In this document: positions 2,915-29,958 of the stretch, one piece after another
Layout of the letters: every line of letters starts with the position of its first letter
How positions within the stretch are numbered: position 1 is the first letter of the stretch
Assembly: GCA_010356995.1 (NCBI GenBank)
Contig: ML996707.1
Span: forward strand, 496,001 to 525,958
DNA length: 29,958 nucleotides
Source: Trichodelitschia bisporula
Taxonomy: Eukaryota
Reading direction: 5' to 3'
The notes under the pieces: model-generated
The model's database searches: none
What the model saw: the letters and a program-made list of their open reading frames with translations, nothing else
What the model was told of the DNA's origin: nothing
Made by a program: the position numbers and the translations under genes

Positions 2915-3408
2915 ACAGTGCTACAATCCGCGTTGAGAGCCGGGTTTGATATTCTGTTCCTGGCCTATGGCATGGCGTCTTTTTCCCAATTGCCTCATCT
3001 ATCCTCCCCGTTCCTCGTCCACTCTCCTCGCCTAATTTGGGTCTCTCTTCCTTTTCACCACCTCAATCTTAATTCAATTTCTCTTGCAGCCCGACGTCCC
3101 CTCCCCCCCATCCCTCTCCTCCGCGCAGACGACGCAAAGACGCGCAGTTCGCACTATCCTCCACCCCGGTCTACCCGGGACATCGCACCCGACCGACCGG
3201 GCGCCGCGGCGCGCATTGGTACAGGGAACGAGAATTGTGGTCGGAGAAGAGCGACTGCCATCTCTGTCCATCTCAGCAATTGGAAGGTGAAGAAAACACC
3301 ACCAATTCCTCATCGCCCGTCCATCCCTCGCCTTTCTTCCTCCTCATCTTCCCTCTCTCTTCTCCCAACAGCAACGCACTATCCCCTCCCACCCCGCCTA
3401 CAACCACA

Positions 3409-4541
3409 ATGGCACATCACGCAGTCTGGACCATGTCCTTCAAGGACCGCGCCGCGCTCCCAAACACTCCCCCACTAGCCGCCTACCTCCTCTACCTCAT
3501 GACAATCAAGCAATCAAACCTATGCCTCAGCGCCGACGTCACCAGCACCGCGGAGCTCCTTGCCCTAGCCACCGAAGTCGGCGACAGCATCTGTCTCCTT
3601 AAAACCCATGCCGACATAATCGACGACTTCGGCGACCGCACCGTCCGCGCATTGCGCGAAATCGCACGGCAAAAAAACTTCCTCGTCTTCGAGGATCGCA
3701 AGTTCGGCGACATCGGCAGTATACCTCCCCCACCATACCATCCCCCCCCCCCCTTCCCCTCCCAGCTAACCACCCCACCCTAGGCACGGTGCAGAAACAA
3801 TACACCGCCGGCCCCCTCGCCATCGCCAAATGGGCTGAAATAACAAACGCCCACCTCTTCCCCGGGCCCGCCATCGTCCCCGCGCTCAAATCCGCCGCCG
3901 CCTCCGCCATCGCCGCGTACAACACAACCGTGCACACCGAGATTTCCGTCGGCCCACCCGCCTCGCCCTCCCCTCCCTCGCCCTCACCTCCCTCCTCCTC
4001 CCCCCCCGCCGGCCCAGTGGGACGGAAACAATCCACCGTGTCCATCAGCACCACAATCTCCACCCGCACCGAGCCCATCTCCCCGCAGCCGACACCGGGA
4101 CTCGCCGGTGAACCAGCGGATGTGCTGGCCCGCCTGGGCGCGACGCCGTATCTGCGCGCGCTGCTGCTGCTCGCGGAAATGAGTTCCGAGGGACACATGC
4201 TCACGCCTGAATACCGCGAAGCATGCGTGAAGACCGCGCGCGAGCATCGCGATTTCGTGATCGGGTTCGTGGCGCAGCGCGCGCTGAATGCGGAGCCGGC
4301 GGATAATTTCATCACGTTTACCCCGGGGGTCAGCTTGCCGCCGCCTGGACAGGAAGGTGTGCGCGGGGATGGGTTGGGACAGCAGTATGAGACACCGCGG
4401 GATGCGGTGCTGGGCAGGGGTTGTGATGTTGTTATTGTCGGTAGGGGGATTTTGAGGGCGGAAGATAGGGCGAAGGAGGCGGAGAGGTATCGGAGGGAGG
4501 CGTGGAGGGCGTATGAGGAGCGGGTGGGCGCGGCGGCGTGA
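3409..4541 (+). CDS. pyrG: Orotidine-5'-phosphate decarboxylase, one intron (3719-3783)
   Basis: Motifs SNLCLSADV, LKTHADII, FEDRKFGDIGSTVQKQY (catalytic DxKxxDIxxT after splicing), LLLLAEMSSEG, GDGLGQQY, IVGRGI. Intron GTATAC...CTAAC...TAG. Confidence 0.97.
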
Positions 4542-15595: not shown

Positions 15596-16718
15596 TTATA
15601 CCGCGCTGTATCCACCCCTCGATCCGCCGCTTTGCACGGTTGAAACGACTCTCCTGCCCCAGTCCTTCATGAGGAACGGGATATCGCGGATCGCATCTCC
15701 GTGAGGCACCATATCTAGACCACGTGCGCCATACCTCGAAAAAGTTAGCTTGTGCGGCTTGCTCATCGCCGGTGCCTTACCTGTTGTAGTTCAACCAAGA
15801 GCCGAAGATAAGGTATGCAGCAACGACCATGAAGAGACTATGCGCGTTAGCTATGAATATAGCCCCCGGAATCTCATAACACCCACATAATGATGAACCA
15901 GGTGAAAAATCCCCAGCCTCCCGAGCTGGAAGATGGCTGACCGTTGGAATCTTCGCATGCATACTTTGTACGCCAGTCGAGCCGTAGAACGCCCCATTCA
16001 TCATCACGAATAGTCTCCGTCTTGTAGCTGATAAAGCTCAGACTCTTCGTAAGTGGCTTCTCTGCGCCCTTCTTCGGTTCGTCGCGCCTTGTGAGAGATT
16101 CGCCGTCGTCATCGATCTTATCCCGGTTGTCCGGCTCGTCGCCCTCCAGCCCAGTACGATCGCGGTCGCAGATAAACTCGATGATAGCCTTTTGCTTCAC
16201 GCCGCCTTTGTTGAGGGGGTCCTTGCCCCCCTTCATCTCCAACCGCACGCCCTCTCTTTCCGCATCCGCATGCGACCCAGATGTGCGAAGGCGCGTCGGC
16301 GTGATTTCGAGAGGCGTTCCGGTCTTGAGCGTGTAGTCACCGGCGATGGGTACAACATGCGCGATAGTGGACGTGTTGTCAACGGGATTTGAGATGCGTT
16401 GTATTCCACACACTGGCGGAATCAGCGATAGCCACCAGGTACTTCGTTCTACCAACCTCTAGTCATCCCGGGACACTCGTCCGAGGCGGGCACTCCTTTC
16501 GTCCGTCTCAACGGTCGACATATATCCAGCGTGAACGTCCAGTTCGAGATCCCAGGACTCAGCTCCCGGATGTAGTGCACCGAATGCGGTCCTCCCAGCT
16601 CTCCGAGGTTCCATTTAACTTTGTCTTGCACAATGGCCTTGCAGTCGAAGCCGAGACCGGCGATTAAACTTGGTAAGGAGGCCAGGGCAGCAGCTGTGTG
16701 CAGCGACGAGCGAACCAT
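15596..16718 (-). CDS. ATG27: Autophagy-related protein 27 (type I membrane protein with MRH-like lumenal domain), multi-exon
   Basis: Signal peptide, FDC...LGGPHSV, TLDICRPL, LRLDWRTKYACE, TM region WGFFTWFII...AAYLIFGSWLNYNRYGARG, C-terminal RGGYSAV sorting motif. Confidence 0.92.
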
Positions 16719-17124
16719 GATGGAAGCCGGAGGTCGCCGACAGCGAGGCAGGGCAGTATAGCCTCTTAGAAAAGTTAAATGAGTCTGTAAGAAGGGAAGA
16801 TGAAGAGGGTCGTGGCACAAGCGTGGTGGTTTGACGGGTCTGAGAGACTTGATGGCACGCGGCCATGTCGGCATGACGCTGTTCGCTGATCGATGGCAGG
16901 TTATGCACGTGATCATTCTCGCACAAGGGTCAAGGACCACCTTAAAAAGTCGTGGCAGTCCTGTCAGAATCTCTTTGCGGAAAGGGGCGGCCACGACATT
17001 CTCTGGTGGCCATTGGCTCGGCAGATAAACGGCTCAATTCAACCCTCAAGCTTCACGGAGCGGACAAAGAACCATCTCTTGTGTAAATTATCTCTTCATA
17101 ATTATGTTCCCGCTAACTACAAGC

Positions 17125-17139
17125 ACATACGGCCATAGG
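17125..17139 (+). rRNA. 5' end fragment of a 5S rRNA gene, disrupted by element insertion
   Basis: ACATACGGCCATAGG matches the recalled ascomycete 5S 5' end (ACATACGACCATAGG). A TCATAAT box starts 29 nt upstream (17096). The rest of the 5S gene is not seen in the window. The match is short. Confidence 0.55.
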
Positions 17140-17164
17140 TCGGAGACTGCACCTACGTTCGCGT
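17127..17164. other. Putative hybrid recombination site (attL-like): 14-bp arm / 10-bp spacer / 14-bp arm
   Basis: ATACGGCCATAGGT-cggagactgc-ACCTACGTTCGCGT, 9/14 inverted complementarity. Positionally homologous to the perfect site at 29190. Confidence 0.55.
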
Positions 17165-17467
17165 TCCCAATTTGGTAAAACTCTGAATTTAGGCTAGCGT
17201 CATATATCCTTTGTCATCAGGCTTGGCGAATATTGTCTAATTAAAGTTGCCATTATTAAGCGCGCGACTACGGAAGGGAACTGTCGATTCTGCTTTTCAA
17301 CTTTTCAAAACTCCAGGACGACGAATAAGGCGTCCTCAGATGCCTTCGGTAGGGGCGTTGTTAGATGGTCCTTAGGAGGGCTGGGAGGTAAACTGGTTAA
17401 TGCTCTGACTTAAATATCCCCGAAGACCAGTGCTGGTTCAGAAGTCAACCTTCTGCCCTCGATCTAA

Positions 17468-19029
17468 ATGTCAACGCAAAACTTCGCTCACCTTCTCTCT
17501 AGGCTGAAAAGCCGCCGAGTGGAGGCAAGATACTCGAAATCGGCAAAACACAGCCTGAGCCGAATCCACCGCCAATGGAAAGAGTTCTGTGAAGCTGCAC
17601 GAGCCTCCGATATACCTAATGGAGATGCACTTTTCAGTGACCCTGAAAAGTATATGGCGGAGGCTGACCCTGAGCTGGTTATGTTGTTCCTGAAATGGAC
17701 TTTGGACACGCGAAAGGGAATCCGAAAAGAGATAACTATTAACGCCTACTATGACCGGTGGCACACCACTCGAAGACAAATACCGCATCACCGAGCGTGG
17801 AGCCTTGAGGACAGGAAGCGTGTTAATTCAGTAAGAGACTCATCTTGATAAACTCGAAACTAATTTTGTATAGTTCATCTCTTTGGATCTAGCCTCTGAG
17901 CATGGACTCAGTAGAGAACGACAGCCGAAGCCTGTCCTAAGCTTTGCCGATATTACCATCCTTCTCAACCACCTTTGGAAATGGGACAGGCTGCAGTATA
18001 GAAACGAGAGATTACGAGTCCAAGTGGCCTTGGTTTTACTGATTTCGATGGCTATGGCAACAAGGCCAGCGGCATTGCTTGAGACGGAGTACGCCAAAGA
18101 AGATCTTGGGGAACCACCCAAAGTACTTTGTTATGAGCATGTCAGGCTCTTCTTAGTCCGCGATTCCGAACGGATGAGACAGAAGCTGGTTCTGGAAATC
18201 AACCTTGTCTTTCACAAAGGATATGAGCGAAATCCCAAACCGTAACTTCAGTTTGGCATTTGCATGCTAATAATCTTCTACAAGAACCACCCACATTCTT
18301 ACCGAGACAGAGAATCTTATCGTTGATCCCATAATACTCCTGCTGGTTCTCGCATTCCAGGATGACGCCTTTAGGGGAGGAATCAAATCATATGAAGACA
18401 TTCAAAGACTTGTTATCCCGGATCATCTTGAGAGGTTGAAACTCTCCTGGCAGCCAAATATGCACGGCATTCCAGTGTTTCGTCAAGCAAAACCACGCAG
18501 CAAAGAGATGGAAAGCAGGAAGCCTTTCGCATATACGTCATATTTGCACTACATGCAACGCCTTGGTGCGGAGGCGGGGTTCCAGACTATGCTCACGCCT
18601 TACATGATTCGGCGCGGTGTTGGAGAGGCGCTTGAAAGTCAGTATGCTTCTTTCCACGTAGTAATTTAACATCATCGTCTGTAGATCCGCAACGGAGCAA
18701 CAACTTCAACAACTTATGGGTCATCGGCTTGATCGAACGTTCCAGTCCTATATCAACCGCGTAAGTCAAGTGCATACGCAGGCAGTCTTTGCCAATGAGG
18801 AGCCGGACCACGGGGCTATGGACCTGCTGTCACACCAAGCCGTCAACCGGGACCCGCGTGCCCAGCCGTCCAATATGGTGCTACGGCACCAGCCTGGTTA
18901 CAACTCTCAGCCCGGTCTTTCCCAGCTCTTGAAGAAAAGGGATGATGCAAAATTCGCAATTCTGATGACTGGGTCAACCGTCAGAGATGCACATATGAAC
19001 TGTCCTGATCTTGCTCAGCTGTATAAAAC
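17468..19029 (+). CDS. DUF3435-like tyrosine recombinase (Starship captain), truncated at the C-terminus by LTR insertion; introns 17831-17873, 18242-18284, 18642-18684
   Basis: Spliced frame is open for ~477 codons, with MATRPAALL (R), VFHKG (K), LLLVLAFQDDAF, LTPYMIRRG (R), QLMGH (H), TFQSY (Y). Confidence 0.88.
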
Positions 19030-19296
19030 TGTCATGGGAGGATACCATCTCTCCCATGTCAAATGGCCACATGTCCTGTATGGGTCACGTGACTCGGCAA
19101 GATTGATGCCGGATGCTGCAATTCCAGCCCCGGCTAGACTTGCCGGTGAGGGCTTGGCGCTGGCCTGTGCGCTAGCACCCCCAGCTCCCCCACGCTCCAC
19201 ATTCAGACGCGAAACCTTTACATAGTTCTTCAAGCTTTCAATGAATCTTATTCCACAACCAATGCTGTGCAGCCAGTGATTTGTGCGCCCCTGACA
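19030..19296 (+). mobile_element. Probable LTR of a Ty3/Gypsy-like retrotransposon (267 bp)
   Basis: Begins TGTCA and ends TGACA. Begins where captain-like sequence stops and is followed by a gag-like sequence. No matching TSD (AAAAC vs ATATC) and no second LTR seen. Confidence 0.65.
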
Positions 19297-19419
19297 ATAT
19301 CTAAGAACCATAAGCTAGAAGAGCCCAGCGCTACGTCTAAATGACTTATACTAAATATAAGTAATCTTAGGGCAGCGCCTACTATTAAAAGCGGTACCTC
19401 GATCTTAATCGATTAATCG

Positions 19420-19906
19420 TCCTACCAATGCTTCTGTTCTCTATCCCACCGAGCATGCCAAGCTCCACTACATCCTGTTCCGCACCAAAGGAAAGATGTC
19501 CGCTCCGATCGTCGGCCGCATAGGAAAGATAGCATGAATCATTACCAGTCTGCGGAGATGATCAAGGATCTCACTCAGGCCCTTGGTGATTATGACGCCA
19601 CCCGTCGTGCGGAACGTCGCCGCGACGATCGTTCCGACTTCCCGATGAAGGAGAACGAGGATCTCGGGAGTACATCACTCGGTTCGCTAGCGTGGTCAAC
19701 GACATCCCTTGGTACCATTATAGCCCGGGTGTCGAGAGGCAGAAAACCAATCTCTTCCGCCAGAACTTAACGAAGGAGATCCTTCAGGCTGTCTGCCACA
19801 TGGACGAGGACCTCGGCTTTGAAGCTATCCGCTGTGCTGCTGCCAACTACTATCATAACGCGCACCGTGACAGGGTTAGAAGATATATTGATCAGGCAGT
19901 AAGTTA
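19420..19906 (+). pseudogene. Frameshifted retrotransposon gag-like remnant
   Basis: Across frames: YPTEHAKLHYILFRTKGK...NHYQSAEMIKDLTQALGDYDATRRAE...YITRFASVVNDIPW...KTNLFRQNLTKEILQAV, resembling fungal Gypsy capsid regions. Confidence 0.55.
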
Positions 19907-20117
19907 GGGAGGTGGGTATTTCTAGTATAAGCTCCGACTACTTATCAAGTTAAAGATACTCCGAAGGAAGAAGAACCGGTAACTCCCTTTTAGCTCCATA
20001 CCATACCCTCCACGGTTTAGCAGAATAGACCTGGGGCAAAACTATTCGAGCGTCTAAGGCGACATATCCCCTACTGCTGAGCGGCCTACCGGTACTATAG
20101 CCTATACTCCCTCCACC

Positions 20118-20563
20118 TTCTAGCGGCCTACCTCCTACTTTATTAGGCGGCATATTCCCTACCACCTAGCGGCATATCCCCCACCAATCGGCACATCCCA
20201 TACCACCTAGCTGCGTATCCCCTACCACTTAGCGGCATAGCCCCTATTAAAGGTCAGTGTGGGTCCAAGGTGCCAGGGCTACCCGTAACAAGTCCTGAGC
20301 GAGCCCCCCGGGACTGTTTACTAGAGAAGCGCTCATAACTCTTAGGTGTACCCTGGACCCACATATGCGACATTGACCTTTAATAGGCCTGATACCGTAG
20401 TACCTAGCGGCGTATCCCCTACCACCTAGCGGCATATCCCCTACAACCTAGCGGTATATTCTCCACCTAGCGGCATATCCCCTCCCACCTAGCGGCATGT
20501 CCCCTACAATTTAGCGGCACATATCCTACTACCTAGCTGCATATCCCCTACCACTTAACGGCC
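20118..20563. repeat. Two blocks of a ~22-bp minisatellite (ACCTAGCGGCATATCCCCTACC) at ~20118-20246 and ~20402-20563; TpA-rich, RIP-like
   Basis: Units counted directly (~6 and ~7.5 copies). Both blocks end in ACCTAGCTGC(G/A)TATCCCCTACCACTTA(G/A)CGGC. Confidence 0.85.
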
Positions 20564-20575
20564 TAGACCGCTTCT

Positions 20576-20674
20576 GAATGGCCCTCGAGCGTCTGCAGCG
20601 CCTTTCCCGACCTGGCGTCCCACAGCCTAGGACGCCGGGTCGGGAAAGGCGCTGCAGACGCTCAAGGGCCATTC
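20576..20674. repeat. 45-bp inverted repeat made of head-to-head WD40 repeat units
   Basis: Arms 20576-20620 and 20630-20674, 2 mismatches, 9-nt loop. Confidence 0.85.
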
Positions 20675-21381
20675 GAGTGNNNNNNNNNNNNNNNNNNNNN
20701 NNNNNNNNNNNNNNNNNNNNNNNNNNNNNNNNNNNNNNNNNNNNNNNNNNNNNNNNNNNNNNNNNNNNNNNNNNNNNNNNNNNNNNNNNNNNNNNNNNNN
20801 NNNNNNNNNNNNNNNNNNNNNNNNNNNNNNNNNNNNNNNNNNNNNNNNNNNNNNNNNNNNNNNNNNNNNNNNNNNNNNNNNNNNNNNNNNNNNNNNNNNN
20901 NNNNNNNNNNNNNNNNNNNNNNNNNNNNNNNNNNNNNNNNNNNNNNNNNNNNNNNNNNNNNNNNNNNNNNNNNNNNNNNNNNNNNNNNNNNNNNNNNNNN
21001 NNNNNNNNNNNNNNNNNNNNNNNNNNNNNNNNNNNNNNNNNNNNNNNNNNNNNNNNNNNNNNNNNNNNNNNNNNNNNNNNNNNNNNNNNNNNNNNNNNNN
21101 NNNNNNNNNNNNCCGGCTCGGGAAAGGCGCTGCAGACGCTCGAGGGCCATTCGGAAGATTTCATGGCCGTGTCCTCCTGGTTGGACGGCAAACAGTCGCT
21201 AGGTTCCGGATCGGATTCTCCACGTTTGAGAGTTATCAAGGAATGGATAACCATATGCGCGGAAAAACGTCTTTGGCTTCCAGCCGAGTATCGCAGTCCG
21301 AGGACCGTCGCCGTTCACGGGGATAAGATTGGATTGGGGTATTCGTCCGGTCGAGTGCTGTGTATGGAATTCATTTGTTGA
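20628..21381 (+). pseudogene. C-terminal fragment of a HET-E-like NACHT-WD40 (NWD) NLR; WD repeats mostly hidden in the assembly gap
   Basis: *DAGSGKALQTLKGHS before the gap. After it: GSGKALQTLEGHS...EWITICAEKRLWLPAEYRSPRTVAVHGDKIGLGYSSGRVLCMEF, the typical NWD tail. No NACHT domain visible. Confidence 0.8.
20680..21112. other. Assembly gap (N run)
   Basis: Run of N. Confidence 1.
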
Positions 21382-21956
21382 AGTGTCCCTTGACCTCCTC
21401 CCCACCCACCTCCGTTGCGGTCTGAGCCCTTTTATACCTTTTTGAGAGTGAAAGTGGCAAGGGATTACAAATGGGAATGGTACGGCTTTGAAATCAAGCA
21501 CTCCAATAGCAAATGGTAACAGTGGCATACAAAGATATCGCCAGATCAGTGAAGTAATGGCTTCAATGCAATGGGGATCTGGAAACATCTGGAATTAGCC
21601 ATTCCTTCAGTGCATAGAGAAGGTATGATGGAATGTAGTGGCCGTGTTCAATGTTTGCCACTCCCAGCCACATGCTCGGCGCTTGTCCTCCATTCCCCTA
21701 TACGCACTTCCACACGCCCTTCCACATACACGTACCTCCCATACACACGCTCCCCCCACACACGCGCTGCTCCGGGTCCGTAAACAATCTGACATACTCG
21801 GGTCTATTTACCCGGCCTGGGTGCTCGCTCAGGCCTACCCCGGCCCTGACTGTCCAATTAACCATTTTGAATCGCTCATGAAGGGAATCACACTCCAGCC
21901 TCGCCTCGATCAACAGTGTAGCGAACAGGCCACGCCTGCTGTAGCCCAGGAGCCAA

Positions 21957-23920
21957 TCATGACCACAGCGCAAATTCTGGAACAACATCCTTGAGCATGT
22001 TGTCGAGAACAACGCACGTGGAAAATCCGGGATCGAAAACCACGAATAAGAGGTTTGGACACGTCGCTAAACGAACATTAGAGATCCGGACAAACGACAG
22101 AGGGAAGGTTGAACTTACGGAAGGACTTTGCTGGCCGAGACCTTCGGAAATCGACCACGATCCAGTCCTGAAAACTGAAAGAGGTGTAACGGCCTTCCCC
22201 GACAAACCGGTCGTAATGCTCCTGCAGTTGGATCCCATCCCGCAGCAATTCAATGCCCCAATGGACCTCAGAGATCACAAAGTCGATTCGCTGCCCGCCC
22301 AATTCCTTGCTGGAAAACTCCGGGGTGGGAATGACGCGTGCTCTGGTGACCTTGTATATCGTGCGGTAGAGTTCGGCGCCATAGGCAGCTTCTGGAGTCT
22401 TGGATTCTCGTCGTAGGGCATACCCACAAAACGACTTCAGGGCAGTCAAGACACACTCCCGTACGCTCTTGAATGGGAAAGAGAGGGTGAGTTGTGGAAC
22501 AACGGTCATCGCGGCAAACCTGGCTAAGGTTAGCTATAATTCGTTCAAAACAGTATAATGGACATAACAGCGATGAACTTCGGTCGGATAAGTATAGACC
22601 ATGGAATTGCCGTCTTTCACAACGGCGTGCAGGTAGCCCTTGACATAGCACATGCGAAGTGCTTCAGGATTTACGTCCTGTAGCCGAGCGAACCCTTCTG
22701 TCGCAACCTTGATGAGAACTTTGCGGGCATCGAGGTTCTGAAACGACTCATGAGGAAATCCGCGGTATGCAGCACAGCTTTGGATGACGTTTACGAGGCC
22801 ATCCGTATTGAACAAGAAATGCTCAAGGGAAGCAGACTGAATATTCTCTCCCTTTCTGGCGATCATTTTGCAATCCTGGATCATTGAAGGCTGAAGTCAG
22901 CAAGGCGCAACCGTACAGATTGCTAGGGAAAAGAATGAGACCCACATGGGATTCCAGGAAGTTCTCAATCAGGGCAGTCGCAAGGCCAATGTGACCCTCA
23001 GAAAACTTGAATAGCATGTCTAGGGCCTCATTCGAGATTGATGCGGATTTCGCCGTAGTCTTCTTCAACCCCCAGCTCATGAACTCTTCTAGCGAGAAAA
23101 ACATGCCCACGTGGATAAAAGTTGACGGACGTAGCCCGACAATGCAATTCTCGGGAAGTGTCAATGGAGTCAATGCACTCTCGTGATTGCCAAGGTCCGC
23201 CGAACTGCCATAGCAACAGGCCAAGACAAACTTGATACTTTGTGGTCTTGTTTTGAATTTCTCCAAGACAACCTTGATAGCCTCGTTCCAAAAGGGTGCA
23301 TCAGTGTAACTCGTCTGCCCTTCATCGAAAAGAATGTAGGCTGGAGTGCGAAGGACGTCTGCGTGGGCATCCAGCAATAGTTCCTTCAGCTGATGAAACC
23401 AGAGCCTCGTTGCCCCGTTAGGGTAACGGGAAAGAAGATGGACCTGATTGCCTTGGAGACGAAGGTAGTGATAGAGGAGGTCCATGACGCTGGTCTTTCC
23501 GGACGCGGGGGTGCCTCGAAGCTGAACGACACCGGTGTGATCAAGACGCTCGACAACAGCCTTCAGGAGGTTTATTCGGGGCTCCAGGCAAAGGTATTGT
23601 GCGACTTCATCGTAGGTCGGGATATCGAGTGGAATTCGCTCGCTCGCACCTCTCGCGATTGTGGCAAAGGATTCCTCTTGGGGCACTTCATTCTGGTTAG
23701 CTAGACCGGGGAAGGATGAGTTGCTGTCCTCACCAACGTCAATCCCTGAAGAGGGCAGTGCAGCAGCTGTAGTCGGCAGACTGGGCGTGTCGTGGATTGA
23801 GAATGCATGACCGCAAACTGTGCAGGTTGGATCACCGCCTGCGCCCGCCGGCGCCGAAGCCTGCATACAAAGGCACCCCATCATTCCTTGCCTGAAGCGG
23901 CATGGTCCACGGAACACCAT
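21957..23920 (-). CDS. Crinkler-type P-loop NTPase + PD-(D/E)xK restriction-endonuclease-fold protein with N-terminal Cys/His motif; three introns, one with a non-canonical donor
   Basis: N-terminal GCLC...CTVCGHAFSIH; Walker A RGTPASGKTS; Walker B ILFDEGQTSY; C-terminal EAAYGAELYR...TPEFS...RIDFVISEVHWGIELLRDG...EHYDRF...GRY...WIVVDFR. Confidence 0.8.
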
Positions 23921-23928
23921 GATGGGTG

Positions 23929-23988
23929 GGCTGGAAGGGCGTGAAGAGAGAGGGCGCCGGCTGGAAGGGTGTGAAGAGTGAGGGCGCC
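23929..23988. repeat. 30-bp tandem duplication just 5' of the NTPase-REase start
   Basis: GGCTGGAAGGGCGTGAAGAGAGAGGGCGCC / GGCTGGAAGGGTGTGAAGAGTGAGGGCGCC. Confidence 0.85.
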
Positions 23989-26405
23989 AAAATATGTTCA
24001 TGATGGATGATAGCGTCCCTAAATCTGGAGTTCTTGATGGCGACTGACGTGGGTACAGGCAGTACTGATGGTGTGAGTTGCTAGGCCTACGTGTTAAGGC
24101 AAGGTTCGGTTGCTTGAGAGCGAGCTTCCGGCCTTTGTTTATTCACCAAGCACATGGAACATCCTTCAATCAACGACACATACGTGTTTCCTTGGACGCA
24201 CGCAAAAAAAAATACCTATATCGACGCACGGATCGGATCCAAAGCTTCCAGCCAACCGATCATCACTTTGCCTTGATTGATACCACACGGAAGCAAGGCT
24301 ATGATGGTTAGAAGGGTTTCCGGCCGACGGGTTCTCTGTACAGCAAAGTGACGATCAGCCACGTTCCGACATAGCCACGCATACGAATCAAGCCACCGAA
24401 TCCACTCACTCGGTAGGTATCGGCCCGACTTTAATCCGAGAGTCTGTGCACTCTGCAGTCATGTCTTTCTCTGTCTCCCAGATGCCTCTGCCTCCCGGCG
24501 TAACGTTCGCTGACCTCAACGTATCGAGAACGGCTTCACTCTCAACGCCAAAGCGGCCGCGGAGTATACACTCATGGAGCCCCTGCCGGCGCTGAACATC
24601 CGCAACCGCAAGCGCAGCCTGGATGTGAGATCACGGCTGTGATGGCCATAGGCACTGGCTGTCTATGATCTGCCATGGCCGCAGCACCCATGACAGCAGC
24701 ATCCGTGAGATTACCTCGTTCAGCCTCGGCGGCACAAGTTACATCACCCGCCACGCAGCCAAGTCCCACCGGATCACACCCTCAGGGTCCCCGCGGCTCA
24801 CTACTGGCCAAGAGATTCTTCGACTCGAGCTCGTCCCGAATGACTGCATCCCATAGACCCCAGTCTGCTATCGACTTGAGCGTGAATATAACACGTGACC
24901 TCTCGCTGGCCATAGTGGCGGTGGCGGTGGCGGTGCACGACCTCCGAAGATCGTGGAACCAACTCGACTCGCTCGACGGGCCGCCCCTTCCCCGGCGGCG
25001 GCGACGGCACCACAACCGGCGGCAAGGGGCGCTCCGTCGAGGCGGGCGCCGAGGTGCTCAAGCGTATCGGCCGTACGTTCAAGGAGACGCTAGGGCTGAA
25101 TGACAGCGAGCAGGTCGAGTTCTCCGGGCATACGGACGCGGCGACGAGTGGCAGCACGCGCGCGAAGGCGAAGCTGTCGGTCTAGGCTGGTGCTGGTAGA
25201 TGTGTGCTGTAGACGGTTGAATGAGTAGTGGCGCAACAGGTGGTCGACACGACATGATCCCACCGTCCGCTGCTCACTGCCGCTACACAACTCTCATCAC
25301 ATCATCGTTATCAAGGGAGATGAATTAGTCTACCTGTCCAACGCCCACAGACAAACGCGGGGAATGACAGTTCTAGCTCATAACAGCCCAACAGCCAGAC
25401 CAACTCGCAAAGCCGAACGACGTGAAAAGGACAAGCAAGCAAAACTAAGCCTTCTCGCGATTCCACGACTTGGGGAAGTCTCTCTTCTCGTTGACGTCCT
25501 CACTGTTCGTCTTCTTCTTTTCCTTCTTCTTCTCGGACAGCGGCGCCTTGCCATCTTCGCTGCTAGTCTTCTTCTTGTCCTTCTTGTCGGCTGTCTTCTC
25601 CTTCAAGTTAGGCACGCCATCACGGCCTCCACACACTCACTATCGCAGTGATTCCACCCGTTGCGTGAGGCGCATTGAGCATTTCTGTCCATAGGTGGGA
25701 GGTGTGGTGAGTGAAACCAACATCTGCTTGTGGCTATCGCGGTCGCGCCAAGCGCCCGCGCTACAGCAGGTGAATGGTCGTGCCTTCCTGTCCTTCTACA
25801 GTTCAAAGTCTACATGCTCTCCGCCGTGACAGGTGGAGATCATCCGCAGGAATCCATGGAAGATATGGACTGTCCGCCGTCGGTTCAACTAAAGTTGGAA
25901 GTCTGGTAGAGTCAGGATTGTCACTTTGCCGCGACAGTGATCTAAGATCGGTCCTTGTAACAGTAGTCATTGAGTCGTGAAACGTATTAAAAATCCAGGT
26001 TGTGATATCCGTGATTGCGCTCCCAACCCTCGCCCGGCCCAAGACGCATGAGCAAACATGAATACAGTCAAATATGGATGGGGAGGCAAAATTCCGCGGA
26101 AGAGAGGTCGAAACCGAGAACAAAAAATCTATCACGTCTTGTACATGTCCATTGCGTTTCTCGTGCCTGATTCGAAAGCATGGCTATCCGTTGAGGGATA
26201 TCCATCGGGCCACATATGCGTCGGGAACCTCATCTTCGCCGAGACGTCATGGGGCCCGCGGGAAGCCACCTCGCCCGGGCCAGCACAAAAAGCACACAAA
26301 CTGGGTCCGTCTGACATGGAGTCCCAACATGAGTCCCGGTACCAGCTGTGGGAGCCGATGAGTCCGGTATCCATCATCGGCATGGTTGCCAATCCATGGA
26401 CAAGT

Positions 26406-26506
26406 TCCACCAACATGGCACGGATGTTGAACCACGCGCTTCCGTCAGGATCCACCAACATGGGATGGAAGTTGGGTTATGCATTTCCGTCGAAGTCCAC
26501 CAACAG
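26406..26506. repeat. Degenerate 45-bp period repeat
   Basis: TCCACCAACA recurs at 26406, 26451 and 26496, and TTCCGTC recurs at the same spacing. Confidence 0.65.
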
Positions 26507-26603
26507 CATAGCTCTCCATCCAGAACATGGACAGCCCATACGGAGCACGGGAGGGACGTTGAATCACCCATTCCGCCGCGCAACTTGATGGCAAGCATAG
26601 AGG

Positions 26604-27850
26604 TCATCGCTTTGAGTTCCTCTCAAGGGCCCTGGTTTCCACATCACCATCTTCGGTCAAAAGCACGGTCTTAGCCTGGCCCTCCCTGTCCAGATTCAGA
26701 TCAGTGGCCCTCCGTGCAATGTTCATGACAATCTCCTGGTCCTGCATGGCCGTGCTTTGGCCATCTATGTCCATCTCGTCTTCGTCCTTGACCCGAAGCT
26801 GGTCCGTCCGGTCGTCGCCGTCCTGGGTCAAGACGCGGACATTGCTCTTTCCTTTGATGGCCGCACGCGACCGCTTCTCGGCAAGCGAGTCCTTAGGCAG
26901 ACGGGAGGCAACTGCGAGTCTTACTAGACAGAGTTGTTGAAACCTACATTCAAAGGGAACAATAATGTTCCAGTGCATTTGCATGACTCTCTCGAACTCA
27001 TCCCGTTCGAGCGTGCTCTTGTCGACAACAACTTTGAAAGTTTAGCGGCCTGGAAGGGAAGGGAAGGTGAAGCATACTTCGAAAGAGATATCAGTCTGCA
27101 TCGGCTCAGGCAGCGAGGCATCCGCCATGACGAGGTCGACTTCCTCATCAACACTTCCTGGTGTCATGGCACCTGCGCTAAGGCTTGGACTGGCAAAGTT
27201 TGCGACGACGTAGAACTGCTTGTTCGCCTGATCGGATCCAATGTATTGTTTGTCCTGAAGACGTTAGCCCAATGCCGGCCGAGGTGAAGTGCGGTGGTTG
27301 TTACAGCGGCCAGCCGATGCATCAGCCATAAGACGCGACCGGCTCGGATGATAGAGGTGCTTGCCCGTTCAATCAAGCATTCATCGTCGTCCACACCCAT
27401 CCCTTTACCCTCGAACCAGTCGCTGGGATAGTAGCCATCGGCAGCATAAATCTGGCCCCGCAGCTTAAAGTCCTCGGGCAGAGGTCCATTGGCCCCCCTC
27501 TGGTCGCACGAAGTCTGGCGCTTGATAACTCACATCCTCTCTTTCCGATTTGTCCAGAGCATTGGCATAATCGCAGAGCGCAGACCAAGGCTGAGCCCCT
27601 AAGATGCGGTTCGCAGATGACGTATACTTGTTGGACTGGAGAAGCTGAGAACAGATGAAACAAAGGTTTCTGTTGATTGATGTAGACTGAACTGTCGAGT
27701 GTACCATGTGGGCAACTCGTACTATATAGGAAGTATGAAACAGGAGTGGCGTCGAGCCAAAGATACGATGAAACAAGACAATGGAAGTAAGCAATCCCGA
27801 GCGCTAATGGATACCGGCTACAAAGATACCGAACGCGAAGTGATACAGGA
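26604..27850 (-). pseudogene. Est1/Ebs1/SMG5-6-7-like pseudogene with C-terminal PIN-like domain; 5' limit uncertain
   Basis: PWSALCDYANAL...DFVRPEG, then a frameshift at the C6 run 27493-27498, then PLPEDFKLRGQIY...YYPSDWF...DDDECLIERAS...RAGRVLWLMHRLAA. Intron 27255-27304. Then VVVDKSTL...WNIIVPF...TVLLTED (PIN-like). Confidence 0.7.
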
Positions 27851-29189
27851 ACTTACAATATCAGAAGGCTGTAACAAATGGGAATCCGTCTAACAGGTTA
27901 CCTATGAATTTCCCTAAGATTCTGGAGGGAGAAGAAGAATTTACCATGCTGTTGCCGCTCGATGCCCAGGTGAAACGAACTGGCGAAGGATGCCTGGTAT
28001 CGCCCCATAAGCCTCTGAAGGAATCTTGTGGGTATGGTTGCCTATCATTGCCGCTCCCGATCCTGATGAGAGCAAATGATATCCTGGTTGCGTGTCGTCC
28101 CCACTTGAGGCTCCCAAAGGAGGGCACTGACTGCAGCTTAAGGAATTACTGTCTATGGCGCGAGGTAGAATCTCTACGGGTCGGTTCATGTCTGTGACGG
28201 AGGTTATGAATCATTTGTACATCTCTTACGCGCCCAGGAGTGTGCTAAGCGCTGATAGTGTTAGCTGATGTCACTTTTAGAGCGGTAAAGCAAACCAAGC
28301 TCCTCAGCATCCCTGGAGGGTAGACACCCTGCAAGCGGAGGGCGTAGGGAGGGGCGGAAAGCATCTATGCTGCATATCAATCACCGTGGCTCCCTAAACT
28401 AGAGGCAGCTCTACACTCTAGGCTGGCGTTTGAACTGCGGGGGTGTTCAAATAATGCGGCAGCCAGGAGGGAAGGCGAGTCCACCAGATAACCAAGTCTT
28501 CCGCCGGCGGGCTTTCACTCTCTGTCCGAGCTGGGTATGTATGCCAAAGCTGAGGCGGGGGCGGATGAGGTACGCACAGTAATGGCTGTGGCCTACGCCG
28601 CACTGCACCTTTACGCCATACCTACTGAGCCATATCAAATTGCGCTTTACGTGTGACTCAGTGGTTCACCTATCATCCAGCCCCATAACACGGTTTCATC
28701 GGATATGCTACTGGATTTTTGTTAGCCCTACCCTCAGTCTCGAAAAGTCTGAGTATGAGCTGTTCGTAAAATGCAGTACTCTCGGCCTTGAGGCCAGGCG
28801 GTGAATGGAGGACACAAAAAGAAAATCCAGAAGAACTTCGCATCGGACGAGGCTGGTTGATCTACACGCTTCCGAACTTTACAGGTCGACTCGTGGCCAT
28901 AGCAGCGTGGTGAGCATATGAGGCGTGCGGTCAAGTGCATCTCCTATCGACAGGGAGTAGTTGATGCGGGAAGTGGGTTGGTGGTGATTCCAAATTAATA
29001 TTGCCCATGGATTCTTGGCGTTTAAATTCCGCTGGCGTTATTAGATGGAATTTGCGATGGGATTCAACGGTATGACCAGGGAGGCTTGTTTTCAGCGAGG
29101 GTAGCTGACATAAGTTATATAACGTAATTTACAATCTTTGAGGCTTAGACACGGAGAGGAACAACTAGGTCCGGATTGCCTATTTCGGC

Positions 29190-29227
29190 ACGCGACCATA
29201 GATCTGAGAATGTATCTATGGTCGCGT
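29190..29227. other. Perfect 14-bp inverted repeat with 10-bp spacer; putative recombinase att site at the junction of two elements
   Basis: ACGCGACCATAGAT-ctgagaatgt-ATCTATGGTCGCGT. Confidence 0.7.
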
Positions 29228-29958
29228 CCCAATTTGGTAAAACTCTGAATTTGCACTGCCGTCATGTATCCTTTGTCATTAGGCTTGGCGAATATCGTCC
29301 AATTAAAGTTGCCATTATTAAGCGCGCGACTACGTAAGGGAATTGTCGATTCTTCTTTTCAACTTCTCAAATTTCCAGGACGACGAATAAGGCGTCCTTA
29401 GATGCCTTCGGTAGGGGCGTTGTTAGATGGTCCTTAGGAGGGCTAGGAGGTAAACTAGTTAATGCTCTGACTTAAATATCCCCGAAGACCACTGCAGGTT
29501 CAGAAGTCAACCTTCTGCCCTCGATCTAAATGTCGACGCAAAACTTCGCTCACCTTCTCTCTAGGCGGAAAAGCCGCCGAGTGGAAGCAAGATACTCAAA
29601 ATCGTCAAAACACAACCTGAGCCGAACCCACCATCAATGGAAAGAGTTCTGTGAAGCTGCACGAACCTCCGATATTCCTAATGGAGATGCACTTTTCAGT
29701 GACCCTGAAAAGTGTATGGCGGAGGCTGACCCTGAGCTGGTTATGTTGTTCCTGAAATGGACTTTGGACACGCGAAAGGGAATCCGAAAAGAGATAACTA
29801 TTAACGTCTACTATGACCGGTGGCACGCCGCTCGAAGACAAATACCGCATCACCGAGTGTGGAGCCTTGAGGACAGGAGGCGTGTCAATTCAGTAAGAGA
29901 CTCATCTTGATAAACTCGAAACTAATTTTGTATAGTTCATCTCTTTGGATCTAGCCTC
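29204..29958 (+). mobile_element. Left end of a second related Starship-like element (runs off the window)
   Basis: Direct repeat of ~17141-17896, including the 5' non-coding leader and captain exon 1/intron 1. Confidence 0.8.
29530..29958 (+). CDS. Second DUF3435-like captain tyrosine recombinase, 5' part only
   Basis: Exon 1 differs from the copy at 17468 at 12 of 121 residues by manual comparison; same first intron. Confidence 0.88.

Follow-up and report, generated by a model that had tools for sequence, protein, structure and literature searches.

We analyzed a stretch of 29,958 nucleotides from Trichodelitschia bisporula (NCBI GenBank assembly GCA_010356995.1, contig ML996707.1, positions 496,001 to 525,958 of the forward strand; hereafter the window, with coordinates counted from its first base) and found that its right part holds two closely related units of Starship type, each led by a captain gene encoding a DUF3435 tyrosine recombinase. 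The first unit (element 1, also unit 1) begins inside the start of a host 5S ribosomal RNA (5S rRNA) gene, and the second (element 2, also unit 2) begins directly after a look-alike of that 5S start. A head-to-tail array, built by site-specific integration of one element beside another that was already resident, is the best reading of this locus, and we give it a little better than an even chance of being correct.

An earlier note on this DNA, made from the letters alone, had described two captain copies in the same orientation about 12.06 kb apart with ~90% identity in their exon 1 protein, and this description holds: a direct repeat of 300 bp (17165-17464 and 29227-29526, 93% identity) recurs 12,062 bp further on, and 12 of the 121 residues encoded by exon 1 differ between the copies. 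By blastn, positions 17130-17896 aligned with 29193-29958, that is up to the end of the window, with 93.9% identity over 767 bp, and apart from local repeats at 20.1-21.2 kb no other duplication was found in the region from 17.1 to 30 kb. The aligned similarity begins at 17125 in copy 1 and at 29188 in copy 2, and the flanks upstream of these points are unrelated to one another. Differences between the copies comprised 36 transitions and 13 transversions. Both units lie on the + strand, in the same orientation and head-to-tail, and in both of them the captain is the first gene when reading inward from the left end; the start codon of copy 1 is located 343 bases past the 5S start, on the same strand. 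The locus therefore shows two of the traits by which Starships are known, a DUF3435 captain as the first 5' gene (Pfam PF11917 on three exons) and, for unit 1, boundaries marked by direct repeats and by short inverted repeats at the termini. It also shows the trait of an array, in which units of the same orientation are joined right end to left end, as in a circle junction.

To the left of unit 1, the first 17 kb of the window are ordinary host DNA, and the GC content drops from 0.56 to 0.47 at 17 kb. The host DNA ends in what we identify as the first ~17 bases of a 5S rRNA gene, with the exact end of the host part uncertain by ~5 bases. The 15-mer at 17125-17139 occurs only once in the window. 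When scanned as an exact pattern against metagenome contigs it was present at at least 118 loci, 14 of which appeared 5S-like by eye; Rfam was run on these 14 loci, and the other 104 of the at least 118 look like chance matches in a huge collection. Twelve of the 14 passed the Rfam model RF00001 at gathering score, and in all 12 of these confirmed fungal 5S genes the 15-mer occupies model positions 1-15. Judged by this shared start, the left flank of copy 1 is the start of a true 5S gene, and the proposal of the earlier note that host DNA ends at a genuine 5S start, followed by units in head-to-tail order, is borne out. The unitig of the host side reaches up to 17149. Among the at least 118 metagenome loci listed, none combined a 5S start with an element-type left end. 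The remaining two of the 14 loci are interrupted 5S genes with the same 15-base start, and both are unlike the element ends studied here: one (L093) carries ~65 foreign bases after position ~35, and the other (L056) breaks off after position ~65. Only ~92 bases (window 17033-17125) separate the split 5S start from the start of ATG27, which is oriented divergently, and the insertion therefore lies in the likely promoter region of this gene.

Ahead of the second copy we found, as had been claimed, a mimic of the 5S start (GCACGCGACCATAG at 29188-29201). The look-alike is identical to the window's own 5S-side 17-mer (17125-17141) at 12 of 17 positions, with CCATAG common to both. This match alone would not be significant; it counts because the look-alike lies at the same offset from an element left end as the 5S start of copy 1. 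Furthermore, the look-alike forms one of two arms, 29187-29203 and 29214-29230, that are complementary at 16 of 17 positions and are separated by a spacer of 10 bases. Compared to the reverse complement of the inner arm of unit 2, the look-alike matched at 16/17 positions and the host-side arm of copy 1 at 10/17, and each of the bases at which look-alike and host-side arm differ (6/6) complements the inner arm of unit 2. Because all six departures from the 5S side go in the direction of complementarity to the inner arm, the look-alike is, on this comparison, a terminal repeat of element type that imitates the 5S start, and not a decayed host 5S sequence. Exact occurrences of the 13-mer core of the arm are confined to this junction, with one per strand; with three mismatches the core occurs on the - strand in the inner arm of element 1, the matching place in copy 1, and the other six matches with three mismatches are within chance expectation. 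As single-stranded DNA, the 51-base junction is predicted to fold at -15.9 kcal/mol (z -6.8), which none of 200 shuffles equaled, and the copy 1 counterpart gave no hairpin fold (z 0.28). Spacer and inner arm together differ at 7 of 23 bases between the copies, compared to ~1.4 expected from the background of 6%, such that this stretch is only 70% identical, versus 93-95% further in.

Read contigs support the continuity of this region. Unitigs bridge the junction at single-copy depth; the single-copy unitig ends at 29235 and multi-copy sequence starts from ~29206, which places the look-alike arm on the target side of unit 2. These unitigs exclude a gross misjoin. The read contigs are short, they end within repeats, and none of them carried on over the right end. 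Five unitig joints, one from 17511 to 29666, one from 19296 to 27629 with 24 intervening letters, and three of small size, were left unused because their sides are only 23-30 bases long and multi-copy.

No remainder of a 5S gene was found anywhere in the window, neither with Rfam nor with a fungal 5S model that was built from 11 full-length metagenome 5S genes and run with filters off. Unit 1 is therefore not closed by the 3' part of a 5S gene before unit 2 begins. The Rfam 5S model gave no match at gathering score or at E values up to 10, either in the whole window or in small stretches around both junctions, a 5S fragment of 15-17 bases being too short for this model. The fungal 5S model gave weak matches at both element left ends (10.1 and 9.5 bits, E 0.37 and 0.59). 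Its best match was to window positions 4156-4283 (12.5 bits, E 0.065) in the coding region of orotidine 5'-monophosphate (OMP) decarboxylase; we judged this match to be spurious, as it appears to rest on GC-rich pairing only. The idea that the first 70-100 bases of the element are a decayed 5S copy was rejected. The model matches at the left ends lie below the spurious match in OMP decarboxylase, and when the 100 bases that follow position 17 were locally aligned to 11 real 5S genes, they scored no higher than shuffles or the window background, with 429/500 and 255/500 shuffles scoring as well.

We also analyzed the captain genes themselves. Three exon pieces of captain 1 match Pfam PF11917 (E 2e-10, 4e-24 and 9e-8; profile positions 3-316 of 418), and its spliced frame runs for 542 codons without an internal stop to a stop codon at 19223-19225. 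It retains MIRRG, LMGHR and SYINR stretches, which we take to carry the catalytic Arg, His-x-x-Arg and Tyr of the recombinase. The predicted GT-AG introns (17831-17873, 18242-18284 and 18642-18684) are each exactly 43 bases long, and in the 40 columns compared the first does not differ between the copies. A HMMER search with exon 3 returned 277 proteins at E values up to 0.001, and the best full-length relatives of the captain are 613-720 residues long and ~40% identical to it. In tblastn with nine relatives, copy 1 spans residues 30-502 of P0008, a relative with 613 residues, and the similarity stops near 19033; captain 1 is without a counterpart of the C-terminal 110-200 residues of its relatives, a part that in several of them includes a Cys/His-rich tail. 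A word-based homologue search with exon 4, covering longer proteins only, gave no match. Because these C-terminal residues are missing and the read-contig depth leaps to ~50x from 18.8 kb, captain 1 is probably truncated, yet it is not riddled with stops. The description of the first unit as defective thus stands as far as the lost C-terminal part is concerned, but the gene does keep an open frame and all three of the stretches named above.

Captain 2 is present in the window with only 121 codons and a further 23 bases, and there is no stop codon in its exon 1. Between the two copies, exon 1 (17468-17830 and 29530-29892) differs at 18 of 363 bases, with 12 nonsynonymous and 5 synonymous codon differences. 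Exons 1-2 of captain 1 are identical to KAF2396479.1 of Trichodelitschia bisporula (P0152). Exon 1 of copy 2, however, is closer to a protein from another scaffold (P0153), from which it differs at 3/121 residues, than it is to copy 1. Since copy 2 is nearer to this copy elsewhere, and since spacer and inner arm are 30% diverged, the two units look like distinct members of one family and not like fresh local duplicates. Both copies look decayed, to judge by their sequences.

From these data we propose the following history. A small element of 12,063 bp, a putative member of a 5S-targeting Starship-type family led by a DUF3435 captain, would have entered a dispersed host 5S rRNA gene next to ATG27, at ~17 bases from the 5' end of the 5S gene. 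On its right this element would end in a terminal repeat that is a mirror image of the inner left arm of the same element and at the same time a mimic of the 5S start. After integration the right junction, consisting of the look-alike and the rest of the 5S gene, would again resemble the target, and a second related element could then have integrated at that boundary. In an equivalent order of events, element 2 may have been the resident and element 1 may have entered behind the 5S start, at the left junction of unit 2; the outcome either way would be 5S start, element 1, look-alike arm and element 2. The right end of unit 2 would then be expected to consist of a terminal arm of the ...ACGCGACCATAG type followed by 5S positions ~18-120. 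The joint between element 1 and element 2 (right arm, 10-base spacer, left arm) has the layout expected of an excised circle and would be attP-like, and strand exchange by the captain probably takes place in or just to the right of the shared CCATAG core.

What the window shows is the anatomy of the locus, a left flank that is 5S and a look-alike that is a terminal repeat. Strand exchange by the captain near the CCATAG core, the order of events and any present-day mobility of the units are what we infer. The near half of the mechanism put forward in the earlier note is well supported by this anatomy, and the mechanism as a whole is plausible. Its central claim, that the right end of element 1 rebuilds the target, stands in so far as the look-alike resembles a terminal repeat, with its 16/17 complementarity and its six of six departures, whereas the use of the look-alike as a target is assumed. 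Tentatively, and with rather low confidence, we extend this to a general scheme. A right repeat that mirrors the left inner arm and imitates 5S would provide a fresh landing site with every insertion, and small units, often recombinase-poor and carrying genes of NOD-like receptor (NLR) type, might in this way build arrays at 5S genes that resemble those of integrative and conjugative elements (ICEs) and cis-mobilisable elements (CIMEs). The joint between such units would preserve the otherwise unobserved circle junction of a Starship-type element, and units with a damaged captain might be moved by the captain of a neighbor or as part of a composite.

Several observations weigh against head-to-tail accretion. 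Five of the 17 bases of the look-alike are not those of the true 5S start, and the inner arm of unit 1 itself matches its right arm at only ~13/17 positions (by hand alignment with one gap allowed). The right-terminal 1.3 kb of unit 1 are single-copy and might not stem from the ancestral element, and the ratio of 12:5 nonsynonymous to synonymous differences suggests relaxed constraint. The read contigs come from one sample of one study, probably the one behind the assembly, and offer no independent support. In PMC11162782, eight captain rows are given for Trichodelitschia bisporula, six of them of 258-799 bp and none at the position of unit 2, and the summary row for the species gives 3 captains and 0 elements. 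Finally, the right end of unit 2 and the predicted 5S remainder would lie beyond the window, and tandem and nested insertion are therefore formally inseparable; by arithmetic from the record coordinates the public scaffold appears to run only ~4.6 kb past the window. The earlier note had also predicted a later right end with similarity to ~28.9-29.2 kb. In the read set the last 1.07-1.3 kb of unit 1 are single-copy, and this prediction therefore found no support at identities of about 90% and above.

The alternative that survives best, although it is a good deal less probable than accretion, is the duplication of a single resident element at its site, followed by divergence of the copies. Such a duplication could arise by unequal exchange between the left and right junctions on sister chromatids, through the captain or through homologous recombination. 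It would account for the same orientation, the exact spacing of 12,062 bp and the junction of right arm and left arm, and the excess of transitions (36 to 13) fits duplicates that decayed slowly or underwent mild repeat-induced mutation. However, exon 1 of unit 2 is nearer to the copy on the other scaffold (3 residues) than to unit 1 (12), and spacer and inner arm carry more differences than expected (7 against ~1.4 in 23 bases). A later transposition of the lineage of unit 2 could reconcile the first of these two points with duplication in place.

We consider it unlikely that unit 2 is nested by way of an internal 5S-like site in a larger unit 1 that extends past it. Nesting is well documented for Starships, and the far side of unit 2 lies beyond the window; yet the site that was used is an arm of terminal-repeat type that mirrors the left inner arm of the family, and no other such arm is present in 17-29 kb beyond matches at chance level. 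Still less probable is that two neighboring host 5S genes were invaded separately, in which case unit 1 would be missing its right end and its 5S remainder, and the look-alike would be the start of a second host 5S gene, variant or decayed, with host DNA in front of it. The 1.3 kb before the look-alike are single-copy with a host-like GC content of 0.53, as this explanation would have it, but the six of six arm differences that complement the inner arm would arise with a chance of only ~(1/3)^6 if they were random, a 5S remainder for unit 1 is absent between 17 and 29 kb, and no host gene is detectable by Pfam in 27.9-29.2 kb. A misjoin of two dispersed family copies on one scaffold is very improbable: the region is repeat-rich, belongs to a multi-copy family and includes a 433-base N run (20680-21112), but that gap is far from both junctions, and a single-copy unitig of 1,370 bases (27866-29235) runs without a mismatch from unique DNA through the junction into unit 2.

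Head-to-tail accretion at a 5S gene has close parallels among published Starships. Voyager always inserts in 5S ribosomal DNA (rDNA), 20 bp from the 5' end (PMC9156397), compared to ~17 here. Among curated Starship insertion sites, 23% are in 5S rDNA, with at least five distinct 5S target sites and 5S-associated direct repeats of 6-16 bp (PMC11162782); direct repeats longer than 6 bp have been linked with 5S targeting, for example in Osiris of Aspergillus fumigatus (10.1101/2024.06.28.601215). As in the units described here, 5S-targeting Starships (the Voyager, Arwing and Enterprise families, and Osiris) are captain-first and lie in the 5S coding region, with a short and constant distance to its 5' end, and they have long direct repeats matching 5S and terminal inverted repeats in common with these units. 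In contrast, unit 1 is only 12 kb long, where a 2022 abstract gives a Starship range of 27-393 kb. The gene of KAF2396479.1 is listed as a captain of family 'n.d.' in the supplementary tables of PMC11162782. We took family labels from the published family table, with family names from the published Table 1; of 12 identifiers searched only two relatives were labeled, and a numeric string among the identifiers matched only an unrelated coordinate. P0003 (OAT11875.1) belongs to family 3 (Tardis) and KGQ11636.1, from the 90% cluster of P0008, to family 1 (Phoenix), both in clade 1. As the labeled relatives belong to families 1 and 3, we provisionally place the captain outside the Voyager family (family 10, clade 3); its classified relatives do not fall in families 6, 9 or 10.

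Tandem growth is likewise known. Starships nest, and the authors of PMC9156397 liken this nesting to the growth of ICEs; starfish resolves 'nested and tandem insertions' (PMC11162782); and in Keraunos a tandem insertion at the 5' end made a hybrid element that seems to transfer as one piece (bioRxiv 10.1101/2025.02.28.640899). The Keraunos hybrid and the tandem insertions resolved by starfish resemble the present locus in that a second Starship stands in tandem at the end of another. However, the Keraunos pair has captains of different families and is reported to move as one, whereas here the units are ~94% identical, share a site of the same 5S type and are known from sequence. A full-text literature search found no Starship paper using 'accretion' and no paper pairing the genus Trichodelitschia with 'Starship'; in PMC13486527 and PMC11623301 'tandem' refers to other things. 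Publications on 5S targeting, on tandem insertion and on composite movement already exist, and the locus adds little to the known phenomena.

In bacteria, ICEs and cis-mobilisable remnants accrete in tandem at tRNA genes. Accretion of this kind shares with the present locus a tyrosine recombinase, a small-RNA gene as target and an element end that copies part of the target, and its arrays hold defective units beside a possible supplier of recombinase, as would be the case under head-to-tail accretion here. In contrast to bacterial accretion, the host is a eukaryote, the recombinase is of DUF3435 type and there are no conjugation genes; moreover, what has been copied is the RNA gene's 5' start, with a match at 12/17 positions, and the gene is probably not restored. 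The analogy to ICEs and the idea of composite mobilization are reasonable, and the latter is already published for another Starship. Starships are thought to move by site-specific recombination through their tyrosine recombinase, and their sites are known mostly as short direct and terminal repeats. The locus lays out what is likely to be a full site on 44 bases, with two 17-base inverted arms, a 10-base spacer and the CCATAG core of the 5S target. With a right end made in the likeness of the target, successive elements could accumulate at a single 5S gene. Captain binding and strand exchange thereby gain a concrete substrate on which they can be tested, and the growth of Starship regions gains a simple model. 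The features of the locus are listed in the table below.

Features of the two units and of the adjoining host DNA (window coordinates).
Feature	Position	Strand	Details
Host proteins left of the insertion			EVH1-like, OMP decarboxylase, AAA/DUF7025, LigB dioxygenase, flavin reductase, ATG27
ATG27	15874..17033	-	Last ordinary host gene ahead of the insertion; Pfam PF09451 on two open reading frame (ORF) pieces, E 2e-29 and 6e-13
Left half of split target, first ~17 bases of host 5S rRNA gene	17125..17141	+	
Unit 1 (element 1)	17142-29204	+	12,063 bp
Left end of element 1	17142..17168	+	9-base spacer and degenerate inner inverted arm 17151-17168
Captain copy 1, DUF3435 tyrosine recombinase (probably truncated)	17468..19225	+	Exons 17468-17830, 17874-18241, 18285-18641, 18685-19225
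Repeat-rich filler	19226..21381		High-copy repeats, ~22-base tandem repeat blocks, nested inverted repeats, N run
Cargo ORF with P-loop NTPase region (STAND/NLR-like)	22823..24142	-	439 codons
Single-copy right-terminal stretch of element 1	27866..29186	+	One unbroken unitig; no Pfam match
Right-end terminal arm of element 1, 5S-start look-alike	29187..29204	+	GCACGCGACCATAG at 29188-29201
Left end of element 2	29204..29230	+	10-base spacer 29204-29213 and inner inverted arm 29214-29230
Captain copy 2	29530..29958	+	Exon 1 29530-29892, intron 29893-29935, first 23 bases of exon 2

The interior of element 1 has repeats behind the captain and multi-copy sequence further on. In the filler (19226..21381) the read-contig depth ranges from 18x to ~220x the single-copy level, and the ~220x value was seen at 21126-21591. 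The ~22-base tandem repeat is arranged in two blocks, 20142-20262 and 20380-20566, with 11 register-shifted copies of a 58-base reference; these blocks flank a short inverted repeat (20243-20271 and 20350-20387), and the depth over 20142-20566 is ~100x single-copy. The nested inverted repeats at 20558-21381 comprise 45-base arms that are 96% complementary, with 9 bases between them, and 58-base arms that are 86% complementary, and they enclose the N run. Two impressions gained from this region had no support from Pfam, which gave no match, namely a gag-like ORF at 19.4-19.9 kb and a frame on the + strand after the N run, ending at 21381 (21.1-21.4 kb), as the C-terminus of a fungal WD40-type NLR.

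The cargo ORF matches the Pfam families nSTAND3 (E 1.3e-4) and AAA_16 (E 3e-3), both below curated cut-offs, which is why we refer to its region as like that of STAND (signal transduction ATPases with numerous domains) proteins or NLRs. No significant Pfam family was found in the 23 interior ORFs scanned, which include the 19 ORFs at 19.4-28.8 kb of a second search; two ORFs were covered by both searches. The stretch at 22-25.8 kb has ~3-4x single-copy depth. Between the cargo, at 2-4x, and the single-copy right-terminal 1.3 kb, positions 27650-27860 reach ~55x single-copy depth and are probably a small dispersed repeat. The unitig at 27866-29235 has a depth of 444.9, compared to 416 for host DNA. 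On the host side, the match to OMP decarboxylase (window 3073-4538) extends over two overlapping frames, covering Pfam profile positions 1-66 and 66-221, presumably due to an intron or a frame change.

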